Source: a virus (lineage: Duplodnaviria; Caudoviricetes). Taken from it: 64,000 nt of DNA. Below, piece by piece: positions 6,026 through 57,538 of this stretch. The stretch is taken from the IMG/VR virus record IMGVR_UViG_3300029288_000080, positions 113,604 through 177,603 of that record; one strand, given 5' to 3'. Position numbers and translations under genes: made by a program. Position 1 is the first letter of the stretch, and each line of letters opens with the position of its first letter. The notes beneath the pieces are model-generated. The model saw nothing but the letters and a program-made list of their open reading frames with translations, did no database searches and was not told the DNA's origin.

Positions 6026-6039
6026 CCAAGGAGATCAAA

Positions 6040-6267
6040 ATGTCCAAGAAGCTTCAACAGTCAATTCAGAGCGGTGTCGTGAAAGTGCGGAACTGCACCG
6101 CAGGGGTCGTGGCCATCACGATCGCGACTCCAGCGGGCACCCCGGTGGTCCTGCACCTGACCGCCAATACCACGATGGAGTTGGCCCCCAAGCACACCAC
6201 CGCCGAAATGGTCCAGCATGGAAATCTTGGGGACCTGATCAACCGGGGTCACGTCGCGGTGGTCTAA
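6040..6267 (+). CDS. small hypothetical protein
   Basis: AAGGAG RBS, 75 aa. Confidence 0.7.
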   Translation: MSKKLQQSIQSGVVKVRNCTAGVVAITIATPAGTPVVLHLTANTTMELAPKHTTAEMVQHGNLGDLINRGHVAVV

Positions 6268-28147: not shown

Positions 28148-28533
28148 TGCTATTGTTCGCACTCCTCACCTATGGAATCGTGTTTCTCGTGGCCGACGCC
28201 CGGATGTTCGGCTGTGACGCGAAACTCTGGAACTCCGGTGGCAACCCCGAGCAGGATTGTCGCGACGTCGGGATCCTGAAAATCCGCCAATGGTTTCTCC
28301 GGCACGATTTCTTTTCCGAACTGCTCGGCTGCTATTTCTGCACCGGCTGCTACGCGGGCCCCGTGGCCCACTGGCTCTTAATCTATGGGCTTGGCCCCCA
28401 GTATCCCCTGTATCCCCATGGGTCGGCCGGGACCGCCGTGGTCATGACCCTGGTGGCGATGCCGCTCGGTGGTGTCGTGGCCTTCGGGATTGACTCAATC
28501 TTGTTGGCCCTGGAACCCAAGTCCAAGGATTAG
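28147..28533 (+). CDS. membrane protein with CxxC (DUF1360-like)
   Basis: ELLGCYFCTGCY flanked by TM segments. Confidence 0.6.
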   Translation: MLLFALLTYGIVFLVADARMFGCDAKLWNSGGNPEQDCRDVGILKIRQWFLRHDFFSELLGCYFCTGCYAGPVAHWLLIYGLGPQYPLYPHGSAGTAVVMTLVAMPLGGVVAFGIDSILLALEPKSKD

Positions 28534-28537
28534 TCCA

Positions 28538-30658
28538 GTGCTGATCTCCACCGCCCAGCAGGCCGTGACCCGCCAGATGATCGAGGGGACCAACGGGCTC
28601 TTGATCCCCAGGGGCTTGGCATACCCGCTGGACCCATTTCTGCTTGGCACGGTACGACATGGTCGCAAGCTCGGGTTTGAATATGCGATGCTGGTCCCGG
28701 ATAATCGCTGGCGGCTTGCCGAGGATGCTGTCTACCTGACGGATCGCTTCATCCTGGACGACATTCCCCAGTGGCTGCGGCCAGGCGACTACATCTCGAT
28801 CGGGCTGCGCGAAATGCACCGGGTCGTAGACATTTCCGACGAGACCGTCATGTTGGCGACCCGGATCATGGCAGACCACGATGCCGGGACCTACGTGTAC
28901 CACTACTCGTCGATGGCCGAGGTCGAGGGGGCCTACCAGGTTGGCCAGACCAACATCAATGTGGATTTGCCGGTTGGCTGGTTCTGCGTCCCAGGAGACG
29001 TCATTTCCATCCTGTACGCCGCGGGCGACCTTTTCCCGTCGTTCGTCCACTACAACGTCGTGACCGCGAGTCTCGTGGGGTCCACGTCGGCAACGTCCCA
29101 GTGGTTCCTGACGCTAGATCAAGGGCTGCACCGTGCCCTTGCCGACGCGGAAGAAATCCAGCTCCGGGCTTACCCAGCGTATCAGTCCCGTGCCCTCAAG
29201 GTCCCGCAGGCCGGCGTTGCGCTGGTTGGAGTAGTGGGACCCTACCTGTTGGACTGGACATCGGTTCCCTTTCTGGACGGTCCGGAAGTCTATGAGCACC
29301 AGACCGTCCAGTACCTGGACGATACGTTGGTCCCGGTAGAATCCCCGTTTATGATCCAGAAAAACGCCGCCGTCATGGACGCGCCCATCCGGGCTGACCA
29401 GTTTTTCTTCTGGGACCTGGTAGCAGGAGACTTGAATTACGACGACACCCTCGGGAGGGTCTTGGGAAGCCGCGACGCTGCTGGTTGGTGGTGGATCAAA
29501 TCCACGATGGCGCCGGCCATGGAAATACCCGTCGTGGCCGCTGCCGGCATGATCATCACGGTGGCACCGGCCTCTCTGGTCGACAATGACTACTTCCTCT
29601 TGACCGACGACCTTGACACCCAAAGGATCGAATACCAGGTAACCGCAGGGTACGTCGCGACTGCCGAAACCCCAGCGACCGGTGCCATTACCGTCGGGGC
29701 CATCCCGGTGGATAACGACACCCTCGTGGTGGACAACGGGCTCGGCACTGTCGTGATTTTTGAGTTTCAGGCAACCGGGGCATTTATCTCGGCCAACGCT
29801 ACTTATCGAATCATCGACGTCCAAGCAGCAGCACTCCCGACCGACGTGGCCGTCGCGATCGAGACTGCCGTCATGGCGGTCAGGGCCGTCCTGGGGATCT
29901 CGGCCGTGAACGTCGGGCCAGTAGTCAACCTGACCCACGATACTGTGACGACCAGGGCCAACGTGCCCTTGGCTATCACGGGTGCTTGGTTAGGGGCTCC
30001 GCTTGCAGGGATGACCGGAGGTTCCCACGCGGTCGAAACCGTTGACGTGTCGTCGGCCTTGATTACCACGGCCATCCAGGTGGCAGCCCTGACCGCCGCA
30101 GCAGTCAACCGTTCTGGGCTCCACATCACGGCCCACGCTACCGCCACGGCCCCATCGATTGCTCTTGTTTCCACGGTCCCGGGGCCTGCTGGCAATCAGC
30201 CGATCCAGGAGTTTGTCCTGGCCCCTGGGTTCCTGGTGTCCGGGATGTCAGGAGGGTTTGGAGGACGTTCCTGGTCGTTCACGATTAAATCAGAATCGGC
30301 CGCGTTGCTGCGGGTCAGGTTCTACCCGAACGCCTGGCAGGATTTCAACCTCGTGGCCGCGGTCGACACTCCTGTGGCGGTCCAGTTGCTCGCGACAGAC
30401 CAACCGGTAGAACGGATCGACATTTTGGTCGCGAGTGTGCCACCTGCAGTTCCTGGTGGCGAAATCCAGATGACCGACTGGGGCGTCAGCCACGCAAGAA
30501 TCAGGGCTCTACGCCACACCTACGTGGCCCATGTGCAAGGTGGCCGTACTTTCGCCTGCACGGGTATGTGGGCCAAGCCAGTGTGGCGGTCGCTTGACGA
30601 TCTCAAACTTCCGATGAACGGCACCGGGGCGCTAAACTCCGGTTTCGCGATGGTGTAG
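28538..30658 (+). CDS. putative virion structural (baseplate/tail) protein
   Basis: About 700 aa, beta-rich, internal repeat (DNDYFLL.DD/DNDTLVVDN...GMTGG/GMSGG). Confidence 0.65.
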   Translation: MLISTAQQAVTRQMIEGTNGLLIPRGLAYPLDPFLLGTVRHGRKLGFEYAMLVPDNRWRLAEDAVYLTDRFILDDIPQWLRPGDYISIGLREMHRVVDISDETVMLATRIMADHDAGTYVYHYSSMAEVEGAYQVGQTNINVDLPVGWFCVPGDVISILYAAGDLFPSFVHYNVVTASLVGSTSATSQWFLTLDQGLHRALADAEEIQLRAYPAYQSRALKVPQAGVALVGVVGPYLLDWTSVPFLDGPEVYEHQTVQYLDDTLVPVESPFMIQKNAAVMDAPIRADQFFFWDLVAGDLNYDDTLGRVLGSRDAAGWWWIKSTMAPAMEIPVVAAAGMIITVAPASLVDNDYFLLTDDLDTQRIEYQVTAGYVATAETPATGAITVGAIPVDNDTLVVDNGLGTVVIFEFQATGAFISANATYRIIDVQAAALPTDVAVAIETAVMAVRAVLGISAVNVGPVVNLTHDTVTTRANVPLAITGAWLGAPLAGMTGGSHAVETVDVSSALITTAIQVAALTAAAVNRSGLHITAHATATAPSIALVSTVPGPAGNQPIQEFVLAPGFLVSGMSGGFGGRSWSFTIKSESAALLRVRFYPNAWQDFNLVAAVDTPVAVQLLATDQPVERIDILVASVPPAVPGGEIQMTDWGVSHARIRALRHTYVAHVQGGRTFACTGMWAKPVWRSLDDLKLPMNGTGALNSGFAMV

Positions 30659-30659
30659 C

Positions 30660-32852
30660 ATGGGTAGCATTCCAGCCCTCAATTATACGATCCGCCATTC
30701 CCTGGACCGACTCAAGCGGCAGCACCTCTACTACGAGGAGGAAATCCTCAAGACCCGCCAGCTCGTCTTTGGAATGCCCGGGATCGTCACGACCCCGAGT
30801 TACGGGATGGTTTCTGGCACGGATCCGGCCAGCCATGTAACCGGTTCCACTGACCCGTTGGTTGTCTCGGTCAACTCGGGGGTACCCACGACCGTAGACG
30901 TGAACCCCGGGACCCTGGTGTTTCGCTCGGGGGTCTGGATGGACCTCCACACCACAGTCCGACAGATTGCCTTGGCAGACCCGACCGTCGGGGTCGCCAA
31001 CGTCGTGTACGTGCAGTACCAGTTGGAAGATGCCCCGTTGTCGCTCAACGACGCCAACCAGTTGGTCGTGCCCCACACGATGCGGATCGGCGGCACCATT
31101 GATACGTCTACCCTGCCCGAATCCATCCTGGTGGCCTGCACGACCGTCACGGGCTACCTGGCGTTCTCGACCGCGACCCTTGACGACGTCGTGCCCATCG
31201 CGATCATCACGAACCAGCAGACGTCGGGCGGAACCATTGCGATTTCGATTGACCACACCCGAGAATCCTACACGTGGAATCGTCCGTGGTTCAGTGTCCA
31301 GGACGTGGAACACCGCGGCCATGTGGGCTCCGGGACCGTCACGGACACCAACATCCATGGCGTGGGTGTGCCAGACCTGACTGTTGGCGATTTTTCCATG
31401 ATGCAGTTGCTCCTGGACTACGGGATGGTCGTGGCCGATGACCGTGACACCCCGAAGGTTCCTGGATACCGCTGCACCGTAGAAATGGCAGCACCCTTCC
31501 TTGGACCCGATGACCTCGTTGGAACCGCCACGGGCTACCCTGGCGCCATGTATTACGAACTTCCTGACTACCCCGTGGCAGTAGGACAATGCTGGCGAGC
31601 CTCCACGCTGGAGGTATTTCCGGCACTTCATGTCGTCGGGACCAACCGGGTGGTATTCCCGTACGAAGCACCTCCCGGTGGCGACACCCTCTGGATCAAC
31701 TACAACAGGGTACCGGCTTGCGAGCCACCGGTCAACGGCACCACGACCTTTCGGTCCAATAATCCGTCAACCGGCGAGGTAGTGATTGCAGGCGGTGCAA
31801 CGTTCACGAGTCTGGTCAACGTTGAAGAAACAATGGGTGACGCCTACCTGTTTCCTCAGCAGTACGACTTTTTTGTTGACGGCACCGGGGCGCTGCTCAA
31901 AACCCCCCAGGTGGTTTTCTGTTGGAAACGTCTGGATGATATCGGGGCTTCAATAGTCCCGACGATCACGCAATATGGTCCTGGTCGGATCATGGTGGGG
32001 TTGTCGGGTGCTGCCGTGGGTTTCGGCACCATCCAGGTATCTATCGTAGGGATCGACACCACCGGGGCCACCATCACGGATGTCTTGACTTTCACGGGTG
32101 GCACCTGGACCGACCCCGGTCCGCCTGGCACCACCACGATTGTGCCTGGAGCGTGTCAGGTTACCCCCAGGGTATTTGCGTCGGTCACGAACATTCAGGT
32201 ATCCGACATTCCGCCCGGTCATGGTCCCAACGCCGGCATCATGGCCTGGAGCCTCCAGACCCCCACGAGCAACTATGACAAAATGAAAGACGCGATGCAC
32301 GTCGCGTCTGCCACTTGGAACGGCTACTCTTTCTCCAACCTGTTGGACCGCAGGATCATATCCACCACTGTAAAGCCCGAATCCAACGAGATGGACCGCC
32401 AGCAGGACGCCTTGGCGTTCATGCTGCACGCCGGTGGTAACTCCACCGTTTACTGCGAAGACCTTCGTAGGCCCAGATACAACTCGCTTGTGGACCCAGA
32501 TGATGTCTACGCTGGTGGCCTCAACTCTAACCAGCATTACCCACTGTTCCAAACTGGCAAATGGGCAGTTGGGTCTGTCGGTAACTACCAGTCAATTGCA
32601 TTCCCAGTCGACAATACCGTTGCCGGGCTCGCTTGGCGAGTGTCACTACTGCGAGATGCTCGGCGTACACCCGTAGGCTGGAATCCCACTCCTCTATTTA
32701 TCGCGTATTATGGTGGTTTTTGGCATCCTTTTGTCATGACCGTGGTGGCTGGTTTGCCCGATACTTACGAATGTGTAGTGGGCGGGGTTCCGTCCAGATG
32801 TGTCTTGTACCTCCTCAACATCACGGCCAATGGTTACGTTCTCTACGGTTAA
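30660..32852 (+). CDS. putative virion structural (baseplate) protein
   Basis: 730 aa, within the structural operon; HRGHVGSGTVTDTNIHG motif. Confidence 0.65.
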   Translation: MGSIPALNYTIRHSLDRLKRQHLYYEEEILKTRQLVFGMPGIVTTPSYGMVSGTDPASHVTGSTDPLVVSVNSGVPTTVDVNPGTLVFRSGVWMDLHTTVRQIALADPTVGVANVVYVQYQLEDAPLSLNDANQLVVPHTMRIGGTIDTSTLPESILVACTTVTGYLAFSTATLDDVVPIAIITNQQTSGGTIAISIDHTRESYTWNRPWFSVQDVEHRGHVGSGTVTDTNIHGVGVPDLTVGDFSMMQLLLDYGMVVADDRDTPKVPGYRCTVEMAAPFLGPDDLVGTATGYPGAMYYELPDYPVAVGQCWRASTLEVFPALHVVGTNRVVFPYEAPPGGDTLWINYNRVPACEPPVNGTTTFRSNNPSTGEVVIAGGATFTSLVNVEETMGDAYLFPQQYDFFVDGTGALLKTPQVVFCWKRLDDIGASIVPTITQYGPGRIMVGLSGAAVGFGTIQVSIVGIDTTGATITDVLTFTGGTWTDPGPPGTTTIVPGACQVTPRVFASVTNIQVSDIPPGHGPNAGIMAWSLQTPTSNYDKMKDAMHVASATWNGYSFSNLLDRRIISTTVKPESNEMDRQQDALAFMLHAGGNSTVYCEDLRRPRYNSLVDPDDVYAGGLNSNQHYPLFQTGKWAVGSVGNYQSIAFPVDNTVAGLAWRVSLLRDARRTPVGWNPTPLFIAYYGGFWHPFVMTVVAGLPDTYECVVGGVPSRCVLYLLNITANGYVLYG

Positions 32853-39008: not shown

Positions 39009-39226
39009 TCGAGTTACCGGTCAAGGTAGTGGACTGTGCTGTCTGCCATGCCGTGGATCAACTTATCTTGACCTTCGAGGCCACTGGGTTCGGAGCACTT
39101 TATCGTGTGGTGTGCCCAGGATGTGGCTACTCGGCCCCGCCGAACAAAACCGAAGAAAAAGCCGTGGCCCGGTGGAACTCGTGCCAGTCCAGCCGCGGTA
39201 GGGTAAAACGAAATAAAGAAAAATGA
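39005..39226 (+). CDS. Lar-like (restriction alleviation family) zinc-ribbon protein
   Basis: CAVC...YRVVCPGCG...TEEKAVARWN. Confidence 0.6.
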   Translation: MIELPVKVVDCAVCHAVDQLILTFEATGFGALYRVVCPGCGYSAPPNKTEEKAVARWNSCQSSRGRVKRNKEK

Positions 39227-40461
39227 CATGGTTCATCACACCGCAGTTAATGCAGCAGTACCGTCTGGCTTGCGAGAAATCGCCTTGTTTGCCGGAGCAG
39301 GTGGAGGAATCCTCGGCGGACATCTCCTCGGGTGGAAAACAGTCTGCGCCGTCGAAATCACGCCGTACGCCCGGGAAGTCTTGTTCGCCCGACAGGCCGA
39401 CGGAACTCTTGAACCCTTCCCCGTCTGGGACGACATCCGTACTTTTGACGGACGCGCTTGGCGAGGCTATTGTGACGTGGTTTCGGGAGGATTTCCTTGC
39501 CAGGATGTCAGCTCGGCCGGAAAAGGTGCCGGTATTGACGGCGAAAGATCAGGACTCTGGGGCGAGATGGCGCGGGTCATCGGTGAGGTGCAACCCCGAT
39601 GGGTCTGGGTGGAAAATAGCCCATTGCTGGTTTCCAGAGGACTTGTCAGAGTCGTCCGTGACCTTACCACGCTGGGGTATAGTTGTGCGTGGGGACGTGT
39701 GGGAGCCTGGCAAGTCAGTGCCCCGCATCGTCGAGATCGATTCTGGCTCATCGGAAATCGTGAGTGCCCAGAGTAATGTCAGGGTTCCTTGGCCAACCCC
39801 CATGGTCACGGATGCTAAAAACAAAGGTGGAAAAGGGCAACTACGCCGTAAGTATCCACCGCTCAATGCCGTCGTCGGGATTGAGCGGTCCAGCAAGGCT
39901 ACCGAGGCGTTGGCCTGGCCAACGCCTCAGTCCCGAGACTACAAAGGGGCACCAGGAAAGGGCTGTGTTGAGCGTGGCGGACACCAGTCAAGTTTACCAA
40001 TGAAGATTGGGCAAGTCACCGAGGCGTTGGCCAGGCCAACGCCTCGGTCCTGTACCGCCACGGCCGCCACCATCACGGAGCAGGCACAACAATGTGCTGC
40101 TGACCGTTTCCCTAATCTGGAAACCGTGATGGTCCAGCGGGAACATGGGGCAGTCGGGGGTGCCTTGAATCCAGCATGGGTGGAGTGGCTCATGAACTGG
40201 CCCGTGGGTTGGACCAACCTGAAACCTATCCGGGGATTTAACCGCTGGCGTCGCAAAACCATGGAATCCTCCTGGTGGGCCCGAGATCCAGCCGACGAAC
40301 CCGATACCAAGGTGCCGCGCATATCCGTGGGGAAACTGCACCGAGTTGACCGACTCAAGGCCATCGGGAACGGTCAAGTGCCCCTCTGCTGTGCCTTGGC
40401 ATTCCTGACGCTCCAGCGGGAGTTACTGACATTTTTGAAAAATCACCCTTCCGGTCGGTAA
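39223..40461 (+). CDS. overlapping-frame partner of the C5-MTase, carrying TRD (WPTP repeats) and motifs IX-X
   Basis: WPTP units, LNPAWVEWLMNWP, RLKAIGNGQVP; 5' half overlaps the catalytic ORF in another frame. Confidence 0.75.
   Translation: MTWFITPQLMQQYRLACEKSPCLPEQVEESSADISSGGKQSAPSKSRRTPGKSCSPDRPTELLNPSPSGTTSVLLTDALGEAIVTWFREDFLARMSARPEKVPVLTAKDQDSGARWRGSSVRCNPDGSGWKIAHCWFPEDLSESSVTLPRWGIVVRGDVWEPGKSVPRIVEIDSGSSEIVSAQSNVRVPWPTPMVTDAKNKGGKGQLRRKYPPLNAVVGIERSSKATEALAWPTPQSRDYKGAPGKGCVERGGHQSSLPMKIGQVTEALARPTPRSCTATAATITEQAQQCAADRFPNLETVMVQREHGAVGGALNPAWVEWLMNWPVGWTNLKPIRGFNRWRRKTMESSWWARDPADEPDTKVPRISVGKLHRVDRLKAIGNGQVPLCCALAFLTLQRELLTFLKNHPSGR
39228..39776 (+). CDS. C5-cytosine DNA methyltransferase, catalytic N-terminal part (motifs I-VIII)
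   Basis: LFAGAGG, GGFPCQD, WVENSP, HRRDRFW; stops before the TRD. Confidence 0.88.
   Translation: MVHHTAVNAAVPSGLREIALFAGAGGGILGGHLLGWKTVCAVEITPYAREVLFARQADGTLEPFPVWDDIRTFDGRAWRGYCDVVSGGFPCQDVSSAGKGAGIDGERSGLWGEMARVIGEVQPRWVWVENSPLLVSRGLVRVVRDLTTLGYSCAWGRVGAWQVSAPHRRDRFWLIGNRECPE
39901..39931. repeat. 31-bp near-perfect palindrome, copy 1
   Basis: ACCGAGGCGTTGGCC-T-GGCCAACGCCTCAGT. Confidence 0.9.
40018..40048. repeat. 31-bp perfect palindrome, copy 2
   Basis: ACCGAGGCGTTGGCC-A-GGCCAACGCCTCGGT. Confidence 0.9.
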
Positions 40462-40491: not shown

Positions 40492-42060
40492 ATGCCTGAC
40501 CAAAAATGTACCCCTTTTGATGAACAATGGCTTCGGCTCCAACCCTGGCAGGTTTCATTCCTGCTGGCTCCCTGTCGGTGTAAAGCCCCGGTCAAGATGG
40601 TGTGGACCTTGCCCGGAGATTTCCCGGCCATTATCTGCACCACCTGTAACTACGGGATTGTCGGCGACACCGTCGAACAGGTGGTGCTGCGGCACAACCA
40701 TGAGCGTGCCGTTGTCTCCGACGTCAAGTCCTCGCATTTCCCCACTGCTGACCTACAACTCCATTACGCCGTGGACCTCTTGGTCGCGCTGTTGCCCTGT
40801 CGAGAAGTCCAGGACGGCATCGATGCCCTGGTCCACCAGGGAAAACTCCCGGCCGACAAACCCTACTGTGTCCATCGGGCTGGCCCGGCCCATTGTGCTG
40901 GGTTGGAAAAAGACTTCGCTGAGTTGAGCGGCACCCTGGCCAACCTGGTCTTGAAGGATGCCAAAGCCGGTAGCATTCTGAAATCCGGCCAGACCGTGGA
41001 GCAGGCCAAAGCACTGGACGACGCAAGTCATAAATACTGGTCTGAGATCAACGAACGGGCCAAAAAGAACGTTCAAGAGCATCCCGACACCGTAGACTTG
41101 GATAATGCGCGGGGGAAAAAAGCCGCCCAAGCCAAACTGGCCAAGATGTCCCGTGAACAGATCTTGGTCGGGATGTCGCTCAAGGATTTTTATTCCACTG
41201 AATGTGGTGCAATCCCGAAAGTCAGCGAGGCCGAATGGAGAGTCCTCATCCAGGACCGTTTGAAGCAACTGGACGAGCTGGACCGCCGCGTTGCCGAGAA
41301 AAAGGCCAAGATGGCCACACCGTCGGGCCTCAAGACCGCCACGGTGAAAAAGCCGACCAAGACGACGGTCAAGAAGGGCGTGGTGCCGGCACCACCGGCC
41401 CGTAAATCCATCCAGGCCAGGGTGCCGTGCATCGCCGACGAGAACGAGAAAATCCAGGCCATGCACCTGCCGCCCAAGGGGTCGATAATCTTGGTGCTCG
41501 GTAGCGACGAGGCAGTTGCCGCCCAGCAGGCTGCCCAGAAGACCAAGGTTCTTGCCGAGCAAGACAAGGCCAAGGAGCAGGACGACCATGATCCCAAGGC
41601 TACCGAGGCACTCCAGACCAAGCTCCGGTCAATCGCGAAGGTTGCACTGCAGCGAAGCGGTAACATCCTGGTCAAGTCCCAGACCCAAGTGATCCGGGTG
41701 CTGTATCGTGAACAGGGTAACCTGTACGAAATCTCAAGCATCCTGGGGAATCCCCACGGATTCGTGGTGCAGCGGGTCGTGTATGTGGCGGGGGTTTCAA
41801 ATGTCCCCACTAAACTGCCCGGCCAAGACATGGAAGCGGTCCTGGGGATCGCGACCCCCGGGCCCAACAACGAGATGAACAACACCGTCTGGTATGACCG
41901 GATTGACCTACGGCCCCGCGACGGTACCGTCGCGGCAGGACCGTCGCTGCATCTTTGCTGTCACAATGTTGAAGCCCAGGTTTCCGCTGGCCCCACGTTA
42001 GCCTCTATCGTTGACACCACCAAGCCGGCTGAGCCGGAGAAAGACCAGTCCAATGCGTAG
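40492..42060 (+). CDS. multi-domain hypothetical protein
   Basis: AAGGA RBS, 522 aa, Lys-rich linker. Confidence 0.7.
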   Translation: MPDQKCTPFDEQWLRLQPWQVSFLLAPCRCKAPVKMVWTLPGDFPAIICTTCNYGIVGDTVEQVVLRHNHERAVVSDVKSSHFPTADLQLHYAVDLLVALLPCREVQDGIDALVHQGKLPADKPYCVHRAGPAHCAGLEKDFAELSGTLANLVLKDAKAGSILKSGQTVEQAKALDDASHKYWSEINERAKKNVQEHPDTVDLDNARGKKAAQAKLAKMSREQILVGMSLKDFYSTECGAIPKVSEAEWRVLIQDRLKQLDELDRRVAEKKAKMATPSGLKTATVKKPTKTTVKKGVVPAPPARKSIQARVPCIADENEKIQAMHLPPKGSIILVLGSDEAVAAQQAAQKTKVLAEQDKAKEQDDHDPKATEALQTKLRSIAKVALQRSGNILVKSQTQVIRVLYREQGNLYEISSILGNPHGFVVQRVVYVAGVSNVPTKLPGQDMEAVLGIATPGPNNEMNNTVWYDRIDLRPRDGTVAAGPSLHLCCHNVEAQVSAGPTLASIVDTTKPAEPEKDQSNA

Positions 42061-43005: not shown

Positions 43006-43052
43006 TCCCAACCATTAAGCTAGATTTAATGGTTCCGCACCCCGAGGTCCAG

Positions 43053-43859
43053 ATGGCCAAAAAGCGAAACGACGAAGAACAATGGCGTGATGTCCCTGGA
43101 TACGAGGGTCTGTACCAAGTTTCTTCGTGGGGCAAAGTCAAAAGTCTAAGCCGCCAAACCCGGAATGGCCCAGGTGACAACCACTGGATGTGGTCCAAAG
43201 ACCGGATTTTGGCTGCACCAATAGATGCTCGCGGATATCGCTATGTAGGACTACCGCGTTTTGCTGCTGACGGACAGGCCACCTGCACGTATAAAAATCA
43301 TCGCGTGCACTTACTTGTCCTGGCAGCATTCGTGGGGCCCTTACCCCAGGACCAGATGGGCCGGCATTTAGACAACAATAAACTAAACAACAGATTAGAC
43401 AATCTTGCCTATGGAACCCACCAAGACAACATGAACGACAAGTTCGTTCATGGCACTAATCCAGCAGGTTCAAAAAATCCTGGGAGTAAACTAAGCGAAG
43501 ACGATGTATTGGCGATACGAAATGCTTTTGTTCGTGGTGCCACCCAAACCAGTCTAGCGCTAGAATACCACGTGAGCGTCGGTAGCGTGTGCAATATCGT
43601 GCATGGCAAGTCATGGCAGCATGTCACGATGCCACCTAAGCTGCTGCGGTACTTAGAACAGCACCCTGTTTCAGCAAGCTACCGTCACCGCGGTGACAGA
43701 CGAGTCATGACTGAAGCGCAGGTCGTAGAGATACGACAATGGTATGATCGGCATAAAAAGTCCGTCGCGAGCACCGCGCGGCACTTTAGCCTTCCGTATG
43801 GCAGCGTAAGAGGCATCATTACTGGTCGTACCTGGCGATCCTTGCTGGAGCAAAAATAA
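43053..43859 (+). CDS. NUMOD4-HNH homing endonuclease with two C-terminal HTH modules
   Basis: EQWRDVPGYEGLYQVSSWGKVKS; VHLLVLAAF..HLDNNKLNNRLDNL; KLSEDDV..IR. Confidence 0.9.
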   Translation: MAKKRNDEEQWRDVPGYEGLYQVSSWGKVKSLSRQTRNGPGDNHWMWSKDRILAAPIDARGYRYVGLPRFAADGQATCTYKNHRVHLLVLAAFVGPLPQDQMGRHLDNNKLNNRLDNLAYGTHQDNMNDKFVHGTNPAGSKNPGSKLSEDDVLAIRNAFVRGATQTSLALEYHVSVGSVCNIVHGKSWQHVTMPPKLLRYLEQHPVSASYRHRGDRRVMTEAQVVEIRQWYDRHKKSVASTARHFSLPYGSVRGIITGRTWRSLLEQK

Positions 43860-45718
43860 TGCCTGTGAAAAAATACGGCGCTGCCGAAATCCAAGTTCTT
43901 GAGGGACTGGAGCACATTCGTAAGCGTGTAGGAATGTATATCCCCGACACTGGACCTGCCGGGGTCCACCACCTTCTTCATGAAGCTGTTGATAATGCCG
44001 TGGACGAGTTCCTAGATGGCCACGTTGACGAAATCAGCGTCACATTGCTGCCAGATGGTGCTGTTGTTCAAGATAATGGCCGTGGGATTCCAGTGGAACA
44101 TCATGAGCAGGCCAACTGTTCCACCTTGGAAGCTGTGTTCACGCTGCTTCATGCAGGTGGCAAGTTCAAAAAAGGCGCCTACACCAGCGCTACCGGGGGG
44201 ACTTTCGGCGTAGGTATAAAAACTCTAACGGCGCTCTCGTCCCACATGGTTGCCACGACTGTGCGGGATGGAAAATGTTGGCAACAGCAGTACCATCAGG
44301 GCAAGCCCACCACTAAAGTCCAGCGGGTTAAATCCGACTTGGCCGCTGGTGTCAGGGTGGAGTTTCACCCCGACCCAACCATTTTCGGCGAGTGGAAATG
44401 GCAGCCCCGGAAGGTCGCGGCCTGGCTCCAGGACACCGCGTGGTTGTGCCCTGGCCTGACCATTATCCTGACCGTCGGGGACAAATCAGTCCGGTACCAT
44501 AGCCCCGACGGACTCGCTGGATTACTACGGCACGAAACCCCCGACGCCGTGGTCCAGGGCGACGTGGTAGAAATCCACGTTGAAGGGGTCGTGGACGCGG
44601 CGTTCTGCTGGACCGACGTGGAAGGCGAGCACTGGCGTTCCTGGGTCAACGTGGTGAACACCCCGGGCCACGGGGTCCACGTCAAAGGCGCCACCAGGGC
44701 GATCCAGGATTTTCTCCAGGAGTTGTCCGACCAGAAGATCCGGGGTGAGGATCTTCGCGATGGCCTCGTGGGTGCCATTCATGTCCGCACCCTGGAGCCG
44801 AAATTTCAGGGCCAGACCAAGCAACGGTTGGACAACCCCGAGGTCGAGACCCAGGTCTACGGGATTGTCCTGCAGCACCTCCGGGACCACCGAGCAGCCC
44901 TGCAGGACCAATGCTTGGCCATCGTGGCCAGGGCCAAGAGGATCCAGGACGCCCGCCAGAAGTTCCGGGCGGAACAGTCGGCCATCAAGAACGTCAAGGT
45001 CAAGCGAGGAGCCCGGGGGCTCCTACCGGACAAACTCGTAGAGGCCCCTGACTGTACGGCTGACGAGCGGGAACTCTACATCGTGGAGGGTGATTCGGCC
45101 GGCGGCACCGTCAAGAAGGCCAGGATCCGAAAACGCCGAGGCAAGGGTGACCACGAATACCACTACCAGGAGGTCTTTCAACTCCGGGGCAAGGTAGCGA
45201 ACGCAGCCCGAAAAGGCGAGGTTGAGGACCTGCTGAAAAACCAGGAGGTCAAGGACCTGATCACCGCGATTGGCGCTGGGATTGGTGACTCGTTTGACCT
45301 GACGAAGTGTCGGTACCGACACGTCTACCTCCTGGCCGACGCCGACCCTGATGGCAAGCACATCGTCGCGTTGCTCCTGGGACTGTTCGCCCGGTATTTC
45401 CCAACGTTGATTTCCGCCGGGATTATCCGGGTGGTCCTGAACCCCCTGTTCATGGGGGTCACGGCGACCAGCAGGGTCTACGGCGATTCAGTCGAGGAAA
45501 TCCGAGCAACCCTGGGGGGCAAGCAAAACATCAGGATCACGCGGTTCAAGGGCCTGGGCGAGTCCAACGCGTCTGACCTCCAAGCCTACGCGCTTCACCC
45601 CAAGACCCGCCGGGTCCTGCAGGTGGAATGGGATGACAAGCACGACGCCAAGTTGGTCCAGCGGTACATGGGGCTCGACGTCACGGCCCGGAGGGAAATC
45701 CTCGGGATTGTCGATTAA
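43859..45718 (+). CDS. type IIA topoisomerase B subunit (GyrB/ParE-like)
   Basis: GLEHIRKRVGMYI, EAVDNAVDE, DNGRGIP, LHAGGKF, VEGDSAGG, LRGK, DADPDG, RFKGLGE. Confidence 0.95.
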   Translation: MPVKKYGAAEIQVLEGLEHIRKRVGMYIPDTGPAGVHHLLHEAVDNAVDEFLDGHVDEISVTLLPDGAVVQDNGRGIPVEHHEQANCSTLEAVFTLLHAGGKFKKGAYTSATGGTFGVGIKTLTALSSHMVATTVRDGKCWQQQYHQGKPTTKVQRVKSDLAAGVRVEFHPDPTIFGEWKWQPRKVAAWLQDTAWLCPGLTIILTVGDKSVRYHSPDGLAGLLRHETPDAVVQGDVVEIHVEGVVDAAFCWTDVEGEHWRSWVNVVNTPGHGVHVKGATRAIQDFLQELSDQKIRGEDLRDGLVGAIHVRTLEPKFQGQTKQRLDNPEVETQVYGIVLQHLRDHRAALQDQCLAIVARAKRIQDARQKFRAEQSAIKNVKVKRGARGLLPDKLVEAPDCTADERELYIVEGDSAGGTVKKARIRKRRGKGDHEYHYQEVFQLRGKVANAARKGEVEDLLKNQEVKDLITAIGAGIGDSFDLTKCRYRHVYLLADADPDGKHIVALLLGLFARYFPTLISAGIIRVVLNPLFMGVTATSRVYGDSVEEIRATLGGKQNIRITRFKGLGESNASDLQAYALHPKTRRVLQVEWDDKHDAKLVQRYMGLDVTARREILGIVD

Positions 45719-46754: not shown

Positions 46755-47342
46755 ATGGATGACCTCTCCAGAGCCAACGAAGCGCAGCGAGAAATAGATG
46801 AGTTGCAGCGCGCATTAGATTACGCCCAAAAGGAAGCGCAACACCTCAAGGTCATCATGAGGGACGCATTGGTGCCGTGCCCCAGGTGCAACGGGACCTT
46901 GTGGGTTGGTGACCAAGATAGCGGTGATGTTTGCCCATGCGATTCTGCTGGATATGTCCCAGGCTACGTGCCGGCGACCGACGCTTCGCTGAAGCGACGG
47001 GAAAAGATCGCGTCGTCTCCTTGGACCTCTGGACTCGCGGTCCAGGTGGCTGGAATGGACGGTGGCTATCCCATTGAGGAGTATTACCACCCCGAGGCCG
47101 ACGCGGTCGACAAGATCATGACGGCCGCGAAAGAATTGGAAACTGCTTGGACCGAATTGGAAGCGGCCCAGACGGCGTACCACGTGGCCCTAAACGACAC
47201 CACCATGTCAGTTGATGAAATCAATACTGCCACGGTTTTGGCCGCAACTGACCGACGCGATCGGGCTCGTGCGGAATTGCGGGCGGCTACACTGTCTGCG
47301 GCAGAATATGACTACGCCGCAGACAACGGGAGCGAGCCATAA
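46755..47342 (+). CDS. hypothetical protein with coiled coils and CPRCNG zinc motif
   Basis: 195-aa ORF. Confidence 0.65.
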   Translation: MDDLSRANEAQREIDELQRALDYAQKEAQHLKVIMRDALVPCPRCNGTLWVGDQDSGDVCPCDSAGYVPGYVPATDASLKRREKIASSPWTSGLAVQVAGMDGGYPIEEYYHPEADAVDKIMTAAKELETAWTELEAAQTAYHVALNDTTMSVDEINTATVLAATDRRDRARAELRAATLSAAEYDYAADNGSEP

Positions 47343-47917
47343 TGCGCGAGTTATGTTTCGTTATCAACGGCGAAGAAGTCGGGGTGGGGATATCGGCGGA
47401 AAGCACGCTGGCTGCCGCGAGAAACGCGGCCCTGGCATACAGCGCCAACACCGGGCGCCCAGTAACTGACTGGGACGTATACGATGAGGCTGGAGTAATC
47501 CTTTCACCCTATAAGATCATCGGAGATGGTGTCCCGGACCGGATGTTTCTCGCGCTCCGGATGGCGTCGATCTGCCACACCGTCGGGTACCAGGATTGCC
47601 CCGGCCACGTGTACGACGTGTCCCAAGCCAAGGTAGTTGTGGGGCCCACGGCGAAACCAAAATACGATTACGCCGATATAATCCGAGCACTAGAACTTGA
47701 ACTTGGTCAGCCACCGTACCGCGCCGCCCTGTTGACCGCTATGGTAGAAAACAGCGTGTTGCGGGAAGAGCGCACGCTCATGCAAGGCCAAATGAAAACA
47801 ATGAGAGACACACTGAAAGCGTGTTCCAGGGTAATCAACGATCCAGAGTATCCGGATAGGCCAGTACTTAGAATTTGCATCTGGGAAGCACTAGATCTAA
47901 AGGGCCCGTGGTGGTGA
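47342..47917 (+). CDS. N-terminal DUF2604-like ubiquitin-like (beta-grasp) domain fused to a helical C-terminal region
   Basis: FVINGEEV...L...AL..SANTGRP..DWDVYDEAGVILSPYKIIGD...MFLAL matches the DUF2604 pattern as I recall it. Confidence 0.65.
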   Translation: MRELCFVINGEEVGVGISAESTLAAARNAALAYSANTGRPVTDWDVYDEAGVILSPYKIIGDGVPDRMFLALRMASICHTVGYQDCPGHVYDVSQAKVVVGPTAKPKYDYADIIRALELELGQPPYRAALLTAMVENSVLREERTLMQGQMKTMRDTLKACSRVINDPEYPDRPVLRICIWEALDLKGPWW

Positions 47918-47985
47918 AACCTTGACCGGTACACCAAACTGACGACATGGCTGCGTGGCGCGAATACCATGAACGAGGCAGCACC

Positions 47986-48330
47986 ATGACCAAGCACACA
48001 TTTACCGATTTGCTCGGGCGCGATTTCAGCGTACAGGTAGATCTTGATGCCGACGGGGATGACCTCTTATCCATAGAGGACCAAGGACACCACCCCATTA
48101 TGCTGTTCTGTCACACCGACGCGATCGAACTGGCCAAGGTGCTACTTCGCTACGGCGCGCATGGGCGAGTTGAGCATGTCGACTGCCCAGATTGTGATGG
48201 TACTGGTACGGTCAACCCAGGGCATTTTCAGTGCTATAGTTGTGGAGGTACTGGCGAAATGTCAGGGAGTACAACACACGATGCCCACGACGCGACTCTG
48301 GGGTCATTGTGGAAAATGGCAAGGTGGTAG
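47986..48330 (+). CDS. protein with DnaJ-type CxxCxGxG zinc finger
   Basis: CPDCDGTG...CYSCGGTG. Confidence 0.65.
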   Translation: MTKHTFTDLLGRDFSVQVDLDADGDDLLSIEDQGHHPIMLFCHTDAIELAKVLLRYGAHGRVEHVDCPDCDGTGTVNPGHFQCYSCGGTGEMSGSTTHDAHDATLGSLWKMARW

Positions 48331-51413: not shown

Positions 51414-53552
51414 ATGGAAAAAGATTCCGTCGTTGAATCTAGCGTGACCCACGAGATTGTCCGGGACTGCCTGGAACAGTACGGCCGCTACGTCCTGTCC
51501 GACCGAGCAGTCCCCAGTGTCCTGGACGGCATGAAGGTGGGGGGTCGCCGTACCCTCTGGGCCTTGTGGAAACTCGGTGCCCTGGCCAAGAAAATCCCGA
51601 TCAAATCCGCCCAGGTGGTCGGGAAGATCATCGGGGAATACCACCCCCATGGTGATTCCGCTGCCTACGGGGCCCTGGTCCACATGGTGCACCTACGCCA
51701 TCCCCTGGTCCACGGGGACGGCAACTTCGGTGACCCCACGACAATCCCGGAAGACGTGTTCGCCTCCGCGAGGTACACCGAGTGCAAACTCACGGCGTTC
51801 GCGGAACGGTTGTTCGACGACATCGACGTGGTCCCGATGGTGCCCAACTTCTCCGAGACCACCGAGGAACCGCCACTGCTACCTGCCCGACTCCCGATGG
51901 TCCTGCTGAACGGCACCCAAGGGATCGCGGTCGGGTTGTCCACTTCCATCCCGCCCCACAACCTTGGGGAAATCCTGGACGCCACCTTGCTGGTTCTGAG
52001 GAAGCCTACCAGCACCCTGGACGACCTCCTCGGGGTTGTCAAGGGCCCAGACTACGGGTACGGGACCCTCACGTCTCGTCGTCAAGACCTCGCGGAACTT
52101 TACGACACCGGCCAGGGACGCCTGACCTTTGGCAGTCAATACAGCATTGAGGACACAGACCACCGGGGAGTCAAGAAACTCGTGATCACGGGGTTGGCCC
52201 CGGAGGTCAAAAAGAACAAGCTCCGGGATACGGTTCAGGATTTGCACAAACGCCGCCTGCTCGAGAGTCCCCTGACCGATGAGTCCACCGCCAAGACTGG
52301 GTTGCGCTTGACAGTGGAGTACCGAGACGCCGGGATCCTCCAGGCCAGGGTGCTACCGCTACTGGAGTCAGCCGTGCAATACCGGTGGTACTGTCTGGAC
52401 CAAGACGGCACCGTCCGGAAGTTCACGTTGCTCCAAATCCTCCAGCAGTTCGTCCAGTTCCGTCGGGATATTGAAACCCTGGTGTTGAAGCGGCGACGCA
52501 AGCAGCTAAAACATGACCTCGGGGTCGCGGAAGCCAAGTTGGCCGCGACTCAACGGCTCCCCGAGGTCGTCAAGATCCTACAGGCCCAGCAGGACGAACC
52601 CGAGGCCAAGGCTGCGTTGTGCCGGTTGCTCTCCATTGAGGAATGGCAGGCCGACGTGATCCTAGGGGCTACGGTCAGGTCCTTGGCGCGCTACGGGGCC
52701 GATGCAATCAAAGCGACCGTCACGAAGCTCCGGGGCAACTTGGCCACGGTCCAAGGGCAACTCCAGGACATCGACGGGGTCGTGGCCATGAGGCTCGAGG
52801 AAATGCGCCAGTACAACACTCCCAGGGGCACAGCACTCCGAACCCGTACCAAGGACCTGGGGGATTCGGCCAAGCAATGGTGTGGGGTCCTGCCTGACGG
52901 TACCGTGGACGTTTCAATTGACCTGCCCACCCGATCCAAGGCGCAATGGCGCTACTGCGGATTTTTCGCCGCCGACAAGTTCGTGGTCGTCAAGGCCAAC
53001 AACGCCGCCGCAGTCGTTGCCCCCATGTATCTGGACCGCTACCAGGCTGGCCCGACCGTCGGGGCCACGGCAGCCCAGTATTGCCTCGTGGCCGACCAGG
53101 ATGGCCGGTACTGCTGCTTCGAGACCGACCAGCGCCGCGCTACCTTCCCGGTGTTCCGGGGGCAGGGCAAGCCCTTGGTGGTGGCAGGGCTGAACCCTGG
53201 GGACAGGTTGCTCGTGGTGGAGCAGGACGGCACCGTGCGGTGGCGAGACTTCACTGACATCAAGGTGACGCGCCCGAACGTCCAGCCCCATCGGCTGCTT
53301 CGGTCCGGGCAGATCCTGACGGTAGTGCAGGTCCCCCGGGACACTACCGTGATGCTGACGACCGGAGAGGAACTAGGATCAGCCGAGCAGATTGACCCCG
53401 ATGCTGGCATCCTGGTGGTCGGGCCCCACAACCTGGTGGTCCAGGATAACCGTCGCGGCACCATGAGCAAAAAAGAAACCATCAAGGCCGTGCAGGCTGG
53501 AAACGTCACGGCCGTGATGCCGCTACCAGAGGAACCAAATGCTGCTGCCTGA
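51414..53552 (+). CDS. type IIA topoisomerase A subunit (GyrA/ParC-like)
   Basis: RAVPSVLDGMK, YHPHGD, GNFG, SARYTE (catalytic Tyr), GIAVG...IPPHN, GPD. Confidence 0.95.
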   Translation: MEKDSVVESSVTHEIVRDCLEQYGRYVLSDRAVPSVLDGMKVGGRRTLWALWKLGALAKKIPIKSAQVVGKIIGEYHPHGDSAAYGALVHMVHLRHPLVHGDGNFGDPTTIPEDVFASARYTECKLTAFAERLFDDIDVVPMVPNFSETTEEPPLLPARLPMVLLNGTQGIAVGLSTSIPPHNLGEILDATLLVLRKPTSTLDDLLGVVKGPDYGYGTLTSRRQDLAELYDTGQGRLTFGSQYSIEDTDHRGVKKLVITGLAPEVKKNKLRDTVQDLHKRRLLESPLTDESTAKTGLRLTVEYRDAGILQARVLPLLESAVQYRWYCLDQDGTVRKFTLLQILQQFVQFRRDIETLVLKRRRKQLKHDLGVAEAKLAATQRLPEVVKILQAQQDEPEAKAALCRLLSIEEWQADVILGATVRSLARYGADAIKATVTKLRGNLATVQGQLQDIDGVVAMRLEEMRQYNTPRGTALRTRTKDLGDSAKQWCGVLPDGTVDVSIDLPTRSKAQWRYCGFFAADKFVVVKANNAAAVVAPMYLDRYQAGPTVGATAAQYCLVADQDGRYCCFETDQRRATFPVFRGQGKPLVVAGLNPGDRLLVVEQDGTVRWRDFTDIKVTRPNVQPHRLLRSGQILTVVQVPRDTTVMLTTGEELGSAEQIDPDAGILVVGPHNLVVQDNRRGTMSKKETIKAVQAGNVTAVMPLPEEPNAAA

Positions 53553-54786
53553 AAATGTTGTCCAGGTTTTGCGGAAGGTGTACTGGGATCTCCACGGGCC
53601 AGAAAGCCCAGAGGGCGTGGAACGGCCCGAGGATTTTTGGCCTCCTTTGGTCCCGGTGGATTTCCGGTTGAGCCAAGGGTCGAGCGGAACTTCCGTGGCA
53701 CTGGTGTGTCAGGACCAAGAGTTTCGTGTTCGACTAGGCCGAACGCCCCGCCCTTCCGGAAAATGGGACTGTGCTGCTGATTTTCTGGATCACATCCCTT
53801 GGATTCCAGGTACGTTTATCCAGTTGGTACCCGTGCGGATTAAACACCGACCCGTTGACGGCGCTGTTGTGAAGTTCCAAGGGCAAAACACCCGGTACCC
53901 AATGCTACCGACGGGTCCTGTTAGGTCGTTGACCCCCCAGGACCCCACCGATCAACAAACCTGTAGCCTTCGTGTAGCGCCTGGTGTCGCTGCTAGGGTT
54001 CAGCGGTGTTGCCAGGTGGCCAACAGTCACCATGTCCCGGCCCGAGACCGTCTACCAGGTGCCCTGTTGACCCGTAGGCATAGCTGCTGGGCTGTCGGGA
54101 CCGACCGGGCCCTGATGGTCGCGGTCAAGATCGCGACGGTGGAGGACTTACCCGCGTGGTCCTTTTGGCTGCCGGGCAACCAGGCCGAACTGGTGACGTG
54201 CCTCCTGGGCACCCAAGACCTCAAGTTGTCTTGGGCAACGTCGGGCAACCACATCACCACGACGATCGAGTCACAGGACCAACGTGGATCTTGGCGGTAC
54301 CGGCTAGACCACCTGGACCGTGCCCTGCAGCACCTGGGCAAGATTCTGACGGCACCTCGGGTACTCCCTACCCCGGGGCTCTTGGACGCTGTCCAGTGGG
54401 CCTGGGACCAGCATGATGATCGGTGGCCGCTGTACCTGGTCCCGGACCTCGGGGCTCCCTGGAGCTTTTGTTTTCACAAAATCGGTGACGTTGTCCAGGT
54501 GGTCGCGGCTGTTCCACAAGATGTAGACGGCAATGAAGTTAAATTGGTGATGAAGCCCCTGGAAGCATCAGGCACGACGCTTCCGCTCGACACCTGGTAC
54601 GACGCAGAAAAACTCCTGTTCGGGCTCAAGACCGCCGACGAAAAGACCCAGTGGGCCTGCGGGACCTTGGACAATGTCACGGATCACTTCTCAGTGCTGT
54701 ACTGCCGGGCTCCTGGCATCAGGGTTGTCCTGGCTGCCCAGCGAAATACCAAAGCCGACGAGGCTCTGGCGAAACTGGAGCGGTAA
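53539..54786 (+). CDS. divergent DNA sliding clamp (beta-clamp-like) candidate
   Basis: LPGALL...WAVGTDRALMV resembles GVLL...VATDGHRLA; YDAEKLLFGLK resembles FNAKYLLDAL; size and replication context fit. Confidence 0.4.
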   Translation: MLLPENVVQVLRKVYWDLHGPESPEGVERPEDFWPPLVPVDFRLSQGSSGTSVALVCQDQEFRVRLGRTPRPSGKWDCAADFLDHIPWIPGTFIQLVPVRIKHRPVDGAVVKFQGQNTRYPMLPTGPVRSLTPQDPTDQQTCSLRVAPGVAARVQRCCQVANSHHVPARDRLPGALLTRRHSCWAVGTDRALMVAVKIATVEDLPAWSFWLPGNQAELVTCLLGTQDLKLSWATSGNHITTTIESQDQRGSWRYRLDHLDRALQHLGKILTAPRVLPTPGLLDAVQWAWDQHDDRWPLYLVPDLGAPWSFCFHKIGDVVQVVAAVPQDVDGNEVKLVMKPLEASGTTLPLDTWYDAEKLLFGLKTADEKTQWACGTLDNVTDHFSVLYCRAPGIRVVLAAQRNTKADEALAKLER

Positions 54787-55353: not shown

Positions 55354-55703
55354 TGGGACCACATTGGGAAGACATTTATGACGATGAAGGGTGGGATGAA
55401 GCTGTGGCAAAAACTGGCTTGCCTACCGGCCAAACTCCTGACGACAGCGAACTGCGCCGCATCCTCCTGACGGAAAATGGAGGCAGTGTTTCCGCTGGGA
55501 TTGGTGGCGTCTACGCCTACGCAGCACCCCCGCTGGACCAATGGATCCCTGGCCCCCAAGAGTTCTACACCGTTTCAGTGCCACCCCTGACCGAGGAGAT
55601 GGTCAAGGACCTGCTGGCCAGGGTCCAGCGGCTCGAGCAGCAAGTTGCTGACCTCGTGGCCAAAAAACCGAAGCCTCGGGTCCGGCGCAAAAAACCGGCA
55701 TGA
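55353..55703 (+). CDS. hypothetical protein
   Basis: TAATG coupling. Confidence 0.6.
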   Translation: MGPHWEDIYDDEGWDEAVAKTGLPTGQTPDDSELRRILLTENGGSVSAGIGGVYAYAAPPLDQWIPGPQEFYTVSVPPLTEEMVKDLLARVQRLEQQVADLVAKKPKPRVRRKKPA

Positions 55704-57538
55704 GCACCACGGTACTACACCAAGACCGCGATGGTGACGTTACCGCCATGGTGGTGTCGTCGTCGGGGGAGTTACCGGCCAAGGCACCCAAGGGGTTCCG
55801 TGGCCCGGGTAAACGGCTGAAGCGCCTTGTTGAGAAAATCCGACGTCGCGGCAAAGTCAGGGGTATCAGCACCCACGTGGACCACGATGGATCAGCCTGC
55901 ATGGTCTTGGGTGAATGCCTTGAAACCATGCGGAAACTACCAGACAACTCGATCGACGCCGTTGTCGCGGACCCACCGTACGGCCTGTCCCGACACCCAC
56001 CTGAAATGATCCGCGAGGCACTATCGTGTTGGTTGTCTGGAAAACCCTTTGTCCCTGCCAAAGGGGCTAAAGGCTTCATGGGTCGTGACTGGGATTCCTT
56101 TCCCCCAGGACCAGAAGTCTGGCGAGAATGTTATCGTGTACTTAAACCAGGGGGCCACGCGGTCATATTCGCAGGGACCAGGACACTTGATCTGATGGGC
56201 ATGAGCCTGCGGCTAGCCGGATTTGAGGTGAGGGATTCCATTGCTTGCTGGATCATGGGGTCGGGGTTTCCAAAAGGCGGATCGATTGGACGGCAAATCT
56301 ACAAACAATTGGGCAAAGAGAAGTCACGAAAAGTAATCGGTGAATACCGTATGCCTCTGGACAGCACCGCACCGAATCGACGCCCATCCCAGGGCTTAGG
56401 CTACCAAGGCAGTAAGACCATTGGTGTGGGACGAAACGTCACGACATCGGCTACCGAAGAAGCCGCACCATTCGAGGGCTACGCTTCCCAGATGAAGCCC
56501 TCGCATGAGCCGATCCTGCTCGTGCGCAAAAGTCTGGATGGCACCCTGGCCAACAACGCGTTGGTCCATGGGACCGGCGGGCTGAACATTGATGCGTGCC
56601 GGGTGGCGTTTCAAGGAACCACCGACGAGCAGGAGTCTAAAAACAAAAACCAGCATGGTGACTTTGGCTCAGGGCAACGAGGCAACAAAATCTACGGGGC
56701 AGACTTAAACGACAGAACCAACTACGACGCACCTGGCCGTTGGCCACCAAATACAGTTTTCTGTCACGCGGATGGCTGCCGACCCGTGGGGTCCAGACAA
56801 ATACAAACTGCCAGCCGTTTGGGCGTCCACAAACTAGATGCCCATGAAAATAAAACCCAGAGCATGGGCAAGGAATCCAGGCCAGCAGGCACACCTCTTA
56901 CCCACCACTGTGACCCCGACGGCAAAGAAACCGTGGAACAGTGGGCCTGCGTCGAGGGGTGTCCAATCGGAATGCTGGACCGGCAAAGCTTAGAGCAGGG
57001 GATACATGGTGCAGGGAAAGCGCGCACCGGCGTACACGGCGGGGATTATAAAGCAACATCTTGGAAAGTAAATGGTGGGGCTCCCAGAGAAATGGGACGG
57101 TTTGGAGACCAAGGTGGAGCCAGCCGATTTTTCCCGTGTTTCCCCCAGGACCAGGATCCATTTTTCTACTGCGCCAAAGCATCTCGTCGTGAACGTGAAC
57201 TTGGGTGTGATGCTGTTGAGCCCAATAAACAGGGTACCCGCAATACCCACATCTCGGTCAAACCACTGCAAGTGATGCGATGGCTTTGTCGATTGGTTTC
57301 AACCCCAGGGGGTGCCTTGATCCTCGACCCCTTCATGGGGTCCGGGACCACCGGGGTCGCGGCCCTGCTGGAAGGCCAGCGATTTATCGGGATTGAACAG
57401 GATCCCCGATACCACGAAATCGCGGTCAACAGGATCCACCAGTACAAACTGCACCGCGGCAAGGCCCAGCAGGGTAAAAAGAAACCAGCGAAGTCCGCTG
57501 CTGCCAAACCGTCCCTCTGGGACCAAGGAAAACCATGA
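55700..57538 (+). CDS. N4/N6 DNA methyltransferase (beta class) with a long variable region
   Basis: ADPPY, RVLKPGG, GSGFPK, H.SVKP, LDPFMGSGTTG. Confidence 0.92.
   Translation: MSTTVLHQDRDGDVTAMVVSSSGELPAKAPKGFRGPGKRLKRLVEKIRRRGKVRGISTHVDHDGSACMVLGECLETMRKLPDNSIDAVVADPPYGLSRHPPEMIREALSCWLSGKPFVPAKGAKGFMGRDWDSFPPGPEVWRECYRVLKPGGHAVIFAGTRTLDLMGMSLRLAGFEVRDSIACWIMGSGFPKGGSIGRQIYKQLGKEKSRKVIGEYRMPLDSTAPNRRPSQGLGYQGSKTIGVGRNVTTSATEEAAPFEGYASQMKPSHEPILLVRKSLDGTLANNALVHGTGGLNIDACRVAFQGTTDEQESKNKNQHGDFGSGQRGNKIYGADLNDRTNYDAPGRWPPNTVFCHADGCRPVGSRQIQTASRLGVHKLDAHENKTQSMGKESRPAGTPLTHHCDPDGKETVEQWACVEGCPIGMLDRQSLEQGIHGAGKARTGVHGGDYKATSWKVNGGAPREMGRFGDQGGASRFFPCFPQDQDPFFYCAKASRRERELGCDAVEPNKQGTRNTHISVKPLQVMRWLCRLVSTPGGALILDPFMGSGTTGVAALLEGQRFIGIEQDPRYHEIAVNRIHQYKLHRGKAQQGKKKPAKSAAAKPSLWDQGKP

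Follow-up and report, generated by a model that had tools for sequence, protein, structure and literature searches.

A phage-encoded BilA-type ubiquitin-like protein with a replaced C-terminal tail: a possible non-conjugatable mimic directed at bacterial Bil enzymes

In bacteria, the counterpart of antiviral tagging by ISG15 and ubiquitin is found in the Bil systems. The Type I system, a set of four genes (Ubl-E2-DUB-E1) that acts against phages, is represented by Collimonas sp. OK412; its ubiquitin-like protein (Ubl), BilA, is an ISG15-like di-Ubl that is conjugated to the central tail fibre of the phage, defence depends on the DUB, and the C-terminal Gly of BilA is indispensable (Hor, Wolf and Sorek). 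Bil defence is lost in a mutant of the DUB active site (doi 10.1101/2023.09.04.556158), and the DUB would therefore be an effective target. The CEHH/6C operons, in which CEHH is a diverged E2, have been renamed Type II BilABCD (Chambers et al., doi 10.1101/2023.09.26.559546), and their BilA is represented by the structures of the protein from Ensifer aridi (PDB 8TYX/8TYY/8TYZ/8TZ0, Chambers et al.). The Gly of this BilA is universally conserved, with at most nine variable residues after it; the protein is pre-processed by BilC, which also cleaves BilA-GFP (Chambers et al., doi 10.1101/2023.09.26.559546). The antiviral role and the targets of Type II Bil are less firmly established than those of Type I. 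In the searchable literature, neither DUF2604, nor an anti-Bil protein, nor a phage BilA mimic is mentioned, and a phage counter-measure to Bil is present only as speculation on DUB domains of tail proteins, none having been shown.

Canonical members of the DUF2604 family are proteins of 80–100 aa that end in GG and are encoded by the first gene of an operon with the order DUF2604, CEHH (PF14455), BilD_N/Prok-E2_C/ThiF, and Prok-JAB, and these operons adjoin integrases and defence-type genes. On such an operon, PADLOC assigned the E1 to BilD (5e-19) and the JAB protein to BilC (1e-13), and none of its Bil models matched the DUF2604 or CEHH proteins. A preliminary description of the locus considered here, made from sequence alone, had named DUF2604 as the Ubl of E1-E2-JAB operons, and the CEHH-BilD-BilC operons, the PADLOC assignments, and the account of Chambers et al. 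all agree with it. Concerning the tail, all 26 aligned stand-alone members end in G-x-G-G plus 0–10 residues; furthermore, G-x-G-G is kept in 178 of the 187 members, and in the hmmalign alignment 178 have Gly at HMM column 82 and canonical members have zero insertions between β5 and GG. Some DUF2604 proteins (22 of 187, including P0017, P0054, P0076, P0064, P0062, P0020, and others) keep GG yet carry 13–326 residues beyond it, and these may be Ubl-GG-cargo precursors cleavable by BilC.

The gene examined here lies in a window of 64 kb (64,000 nucleotides), which is the final part of a 177.6-kb viral record of IMG/VR with an estimated completeness of about 70%. Long ORFs in the window are nearly all on the + strand, and the gene content includes a family-A DNA polymerase, DNA methyltransferases, and a split type II topoisomerase. 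The DNA polymerase shares at most 29% identity with any in the phage collection, so that cultured phages are too distant for host inference. The ORF of interest (47342..47917, +) encodes a protein of 191 aa, referred to as P0001, with a BilA-type Ubl domain followed by a replaced tail, a linker, and a helical module. A GGGAG Shine-Dalgarno sequence can be read at 47328..47332 (+), 9 nt 5′ of the ATG, and this ATG overlaps, as TAATG, the stop codon of the preceding ORF of 195 aa (46755..47342, +), which carries a CxxC...CxC motif and gave no Pfam match; the overlap suggests that translation of P0001 is coupled to that of the upstream ORF. A scan for promoters and terminators gave no indication for or against the early expression supposed in the preliminary description. 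No PHROGs family was found for the whole of P0001 or for either half, megablast and tblastn of 50,697 phage records returned zero matches, and a word-indexed search with the N-terminal domain as the sole query likewise returned none. Elsewhere in the window, six ORFs of 415–933 aa (3224-6025, 19248-20792, 28469-30658, 30660-32852, 40492-42060, and 53539-54786, all +) are without a PHROG family at E 1e-5, and a transposase-like gene (phrog_506) is located within the phage at 14521-16041 (+). The two DNA methyltransferase genes are at 39223-40461 and 55700-57538 (+), and one of these methyltransferases, of 612 aa and of the N6/N4 type, is kept in the related contigs L002 and L003.

Residues 1–73 of P0001 (47342..47560, +) constitute a ubiquitin-like β-grasp domain of the DUF2604/Type II BilA type, as indicated by Pfam, AF2, Foldseek, and a PDB profile match. 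The Pfam DUF2604 model (PF10790) matches residues 3–73 at 43.1 bits (E 6e-11; cutoff 25), and the genome-wide profile scan gave 44.7 bits for the same protein. The BilA Ubl of E. aridi (8TYX/8TYZ) is matched by a profile of canonical members at E 1.5e-24 for 8TYX, and 8TYX is reached by the P0001 sequence alone at E 1.3e-4. An AF2 model from the single sequence was unusable (pLDDT 42), and the model backed by an alignment of 85 rows, which was used instead, shows residues 1–72 as a β-grasp with pLDDT of about 97. The best Foldseek match of this model is 8tyx_A, i.e., BilA (TM 0.82, rmsd 1.3 Å, 33% identity), and ubiquitin and SUMO rank below it. A phmmer search of 1.84 billion representatives yielded 76 matches to P0001, every one of which is a DUF2604 domain; the close matches are P0003 and P0004 only, and they cover only residues 2–88. 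All 11 near-invariant residues of the family (N9, G10, A30, L31, S34, N36, G38, R39, W44, G51, and L72) are present in P0001, and the same 11 are invariant across the four phage proteins P0001–P0004. P0001 belongs to the DUF2604 sequence family, as the preliminary description had proposed for the first ~75 aa, and the DUF2604/BilA β-grasp that it expected from Pfam and from AlphaFold with Foldseek was obtained. The protein thereby resembles Type II BilA in family, in having a single β-grasp, and in its near-invariant residues; by contrast, Type I BilA has two β-grasp domains and belongs to a separate sequence group.

The C-terminal side of the domain differs from Type II BilA. P0001 has A-S-I-C at the G-x-G-G position, its tail is conserved within the phage clade, a helical module is present, and the protein is encoded by a phage without BilB, BilC, or BilD nearby. 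In the fixed-spacing register of hmmalign, residues A75-S76-I77-C78 occupy the G-x-G-G columns of the family, and 113 residues follow A-S-I-C, in line with the earlier observation that the Gly-rich tail is missing and that the protein continues for more than 100 aa. The full-length exceptions without GG are P0001–P0004, P0055, and P0075. The tail of P0001 reads MASICHTVGYQ (residues 74–84; 47561..47593, +), and the four phage homologues share the motif MA-x-I-x-HTVGYQ, in which Cys78 is replaced by Thr in one homologue and His79, Gly82, Y83, and Q84 are invariant. Because nine of the 11 positions of this motif are invariant (82%), compared with 43% of the Ubl core and 0% of the downstream region, the tail is regarded as replaced rather than simply lost. 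With no Gly that is free or could be exposed at the fixed position of the family, P0001 is predicted to be incapable of adenylation or transfer. A second GG-less DUF2604 protein, P0055 (L012:986-1894; 302 aa), is unrelated to P0001 and is encoded on a short contig with small overlapping ORFs; at the G-x-G-G position it has the tail AGCFCCHGTT, which is Cys/His-rich like that of P0001, and about 220 residues lie beyond. The same solution may have arisen independently in P0055.

The tail is followed by a predicted flexible linker (residues 85–109; 47594..47668, +) with pLDDT below 50 and 0% invariant positions, and residues 78–105 as a whole are flexible in the AF2 model. Residues 110–183 (47669..47890, +) form a helical module with helices at 110–121, 124–165, and 173–183 and AF2 pLDDT of 73–90. 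Residues 125–165 of this module are homologous to a separate ORF of 94 aa (L002:7751-8035; BLASTP E 3e-8), which in L002 precedes the Ubl gene by two genes. A further homologue of the module is a 96-aa ORF (L016:854-1144), the immediate upstream neighbour of the P0002 gene in contigs L016 and L017. Since homologues of the module are fused to the Ubl or encoded close by, the two are linked in each of these phages. An atlas search and Pfam returned for the module only borderline small viral hypothetical proteins and weak HTH-like structural matches. At the other end of the protein, P0002–P0004 have N-terminal extensions that are Zn-ribbon-like and contain CxxC pairs.

The gene is part of a block of small ORFs bordered on the left by a GyrB-like topoisomerase II subunit gene (43859..45718, +; Pfam HATPase_c, DNA_gyraseB, Toprim, and GyrB_C) and on the right by a GyrA/ParC-like subunit gene (51414..53552, +; Pfam DNA_topoisoIV, E 1e-85). 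The genes of P0003 and P0004 occupy the same site in L002 and L003, contigs of related phages, where small ORFs likewise separate the GyrB-like gene from the GyrA/ParC-like gene. Between the window and these two contigs, the GyrB-like gene is 88–90% identical and the GyrA/ParC-like gene 87–88%, whereas the Ubl gene is only 55–59% identical over about 85 aa, against 87–90% for the flanking topoisomerases, and the block varies in its genes from phage to phage. This pattern is what would be expected of a fast-evolving accessory gene. An alignment-pattern search recovered the P0002 gene in the two short metagenome contigs L016 and L017 and zero further clade members in IMG/VR and 185,579 species genomes. 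The GG-less form with the conserved tail is confined to a few uncultured phage contigs, and since no prophage copy is present among the searched genomes, they hold no clue to the host. Several other elements of the region were observed. An HNH/NUMOD4 homing-endonuclease gene (window 43029-43859, +) adjoins the start of the GyrB-like gene, and the GyrA/ParC-like gene of L003 (L003:13120-16518) contains an intein with a LAGLIDADG endonuclease and encodes 1132 aa, compared with 712 aa in the window; in phages of this group, selfish elements appear to have a hotspot in the split topoisomerase II genes. Downstream of the Ubl gene, an ORF of 127 aa (window 47947-48330, +) contains a zinc-finger motif, CxxCxGxG, of the DnaJ type (sub-cutoff in Pfam, E 0.0014), and its homologue in L002 (46% identity) stands upstream of the Ubl gene, indicating that the small genes of the block shuffle their order.

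The Ubl gene is unaccompanied by genes for Bil enzymes. Profile searches for ThiF (PF00899), Prok-JAB (PF14464), JAB/MPN (PF01398), and CEHH (PF14455) found none in the 177.6-kb record, about 70% complete, and tblastn with BilB, BilC, and BilD of three operons gave zero matches in the window, L002, and L003, including the ±10 kb around the Ubl gene in the latter two; the remark in the preliminary description that E1, E2, and JAB genes are missing nearby holds over this wider range. Two features that define a conjugatable BilA, namely the reactive Gly at fixed spacing after β5 and the operon with BilB, BilC, and BilD (judged on a record about 70% complete), are both missing, and for this reason P0001 should, from its sequence and gene context, not be filed as a BilA modifier. 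It is similar in its orphan status to other phage DUF2604 proteins that end in GG. Such BilA-type Ubls were observed at L013:5920-6249 and L014:3867-4196 (ending VGCGG-HN) and in L015 (about 6001-6255; ending VGAGG), in viral contigs of 155 kb and 202 kb, with Bil enzymes not found by tblastn within ±6 kb. Unlike P0001, which is predicted to be unactivatable and has extra domains, these proteins of about 85 aa have a conjugatable tail and could feed host enzymes. The GG-less BilA-like protein with a conserved tail and extra modules is a variant distinct from the GG-ending orphan phage Ubls.

The preliminary description had proposed that the protein acts as a decoy of Ubl-based defence, and a complex model bears on this proposal. 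Residues 1–95 of P0001 were modelled with the BilC of the L009 operon, a stand-in for the host's own enzyme that comes from an unrelated mobile element of a metagenome, and the model reached an ipSAE of 0.87, compared with 0.10 for the best of three controls; 58 of 80 solved complexes attained this mark, as did two of 110 mismatched pairs, a rough comparison because a custom alignment was used. The runs share at least 83% of contacts, and the pLDDT of the partner is at least 81. On the Ubl side, the interface comprises residues 7–12, 34–39, 45, 47, 51, and 69–80, so that the new tail is part of it, together with most positions conserved in the family; its BilC side contains E30, H91, H93, S100, and D103, a script-checked match to the JAMM catalytic set. 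Confident contacts stop at residue 80, which fits the ungapped register. Because the BilA:BilC complex is already solved (8TYX), this co-fold with BilC, of the kind that had been suggested for this protein, shows likeness to BilA:BilC and is not proof that P0001 binds. The decoy proposal itself gains strength from three features: the near-invariant residues are kept, the tail is the best-conserved segment, and the BilC model passes its controls. It is modified in that a DUB target fits better than the E1.

On this evidence, we tentatively propose, at a little short of an even chance, that P0001 mimics BilA without being conjugatable and blocks the Bil enzymes of the host, among which the DUB is the most likely target. 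Its N-terminal 73 residues keep the BilA β-grasp and the conserved enzyme-binding surface of the family, and the protein would be a dead-end ligand that occupies these host enzymes. The likeliest target would be the JAB/JAMM peptidase BilC, for which P0001 would serve as an uncleavable pseudo-substrate; BilC is favoured because it is the only Bil enzyme with natural substrates that extend on both sides of the tail. Blocking of BilC would stop both the maturation of the BilA precursor and the recycling of the Ubl, and defence would be disarmed. Sequestration of the E1 is a secondary possibility. Binding to BilC, its inhibition, and the anti-defence role are our inferences. More speculatively, the invariant His79, together with Cys78, could be placed at or near the catalytic zinc of BilC. 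Inhibition of metalloproteases of the cysteine-switch type offers a model for such an arrangement. The specific version of the proposal, in which P0001 would be the first anti-Bil protein and its His-containing tail (I-C-H-T-V-G-Y-Q) would plug the JAMM zinc site of the host BilC, is possible and in our view doubtful. The underlying concept, a ubiquitin fold that engages host Ubl enzymes, is shared with DUB-inhibiting ubiquitin variants, Ubl pseudo-substrates, and viral ubiquitins such as baculovirus v-ubi. A search of BFVD with P0001 found only generic ubiquitin-fold proteins of eukaryotic viruses, and the proteins that share this concept differ in that they belong to eukaryotic systems, mostly have a GG tail, and are related to P0001 by fold only, with at most 23% identity.

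The proposal of a dead-end mimic has to be weighed against the opposite reading of the tail, that of a cryptic precursor. Gly82 needs to be considered as a cryptic reactive Gly because in MAFFT alignment A3, unlike in the hmmalign register, the GG columns of the family fall at residues 82–83 of P0001. A host or phage peptidase would then cut after Gly82 (between HTVG and YQ), the freed Ubl would be conjugated by the host E1/E2 so that the pathway is hijacked or poisoned, and the helical module would be released. The invariance of Gly82 in all four phage homologues is consistent with such a cut, and so are the cleavage of BilA-GFP fusions by BilC, the existence of the module as a separate ORF in related phages, and the normal occurrence of Ubl-GG-extension precursors in the family, as represented by the 22 of 187 members with residues past GG. 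However, the tail would have to be four residues longer than that of every canonical member, none of which has an indel between β5 and GG, and the di-Gly is missing. Furthermore, Y83 and Q84 are invariant, whereas the family shows no conservation after the Gly, and the confident contacts of the complex model end at residue 80, as in the ungapped register. We regard processing of this kind as distinctly unlikely. It is also unlikely that the β-grasp was taken from bilA and re-used as a generic interaction domain in a process unrelated to Bil, e.g., replication or host takeover. β-Grasp domains are widely re-used, the gene is situated between topoisomerase II subunit genes in a replication region and at the same place in three phages, and modules shuffle among the homologues, with Zn-ribbon-like N-terminal extensions and with helical modules either fused or separate. 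Nevertheless, re-use as a mere scaffold should have led to loss of the residues that make up the modelled enzyme-contact patches, all of which are kept; the most conserved segment is the very tail that would enter the active site of an enzyme; and the content of the block varies among phages with core genes about 88% identical, which is typical of accessory rather than replication genes.

Two further readings concern the status of the gene. P0001 could be a component of a Ubl system of the phage itself, e.g., a regulatory or non-conjugated subunit, whose enzymes are encoded in the missing ~30% of the genome. The estimate of about 70% completeness leaves room for these enzymes; against it stand the absence of ThiF, Prok-JAB, JAB, and CEHH from 177.6 kb, the lack of Bil enzymes within ±10 kb in L002 and L003, and the arrangement of known cassettes, in which the Ubl adjoins its enzymes and is GG-terminated, and we consider this reading highly improbable. 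Finally, the loss of GG and the non-conserved C-terminus might be taken as signs that a captured bilA gene is decaying and has left a non-functional remnant. The ORF is, however, intact, with a Shine-Dalgarno sequence and translational coupling, the same locus is kept in several phages, 43% of the Ubl core and 82% of the tail are invariant despite fast divergence, and the fold is predicted with confidence. Decay was rejected because the conservation pattern rules against it, and we assign it a nearly negligible probability.

If P0001 is indeed a non-conjugatable mimic of BilA, it would provide a natural Ubl mimic, with an uncleavable tail kept by selection, that could be used as a ready-made probe and inhibitor in the enzymology of BilC and BilD, and it would be the first anti-Bil gene available for surveys of phage genomes. 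It would parallel the subversion of ubiquitin-like pathways by eukaryotic viruses. Furthermore, it would constitute independent evidence that Type II Bil exerts selective pressure on phages in nature and would help to settle whether Type II Bil operons act on environmental phages.
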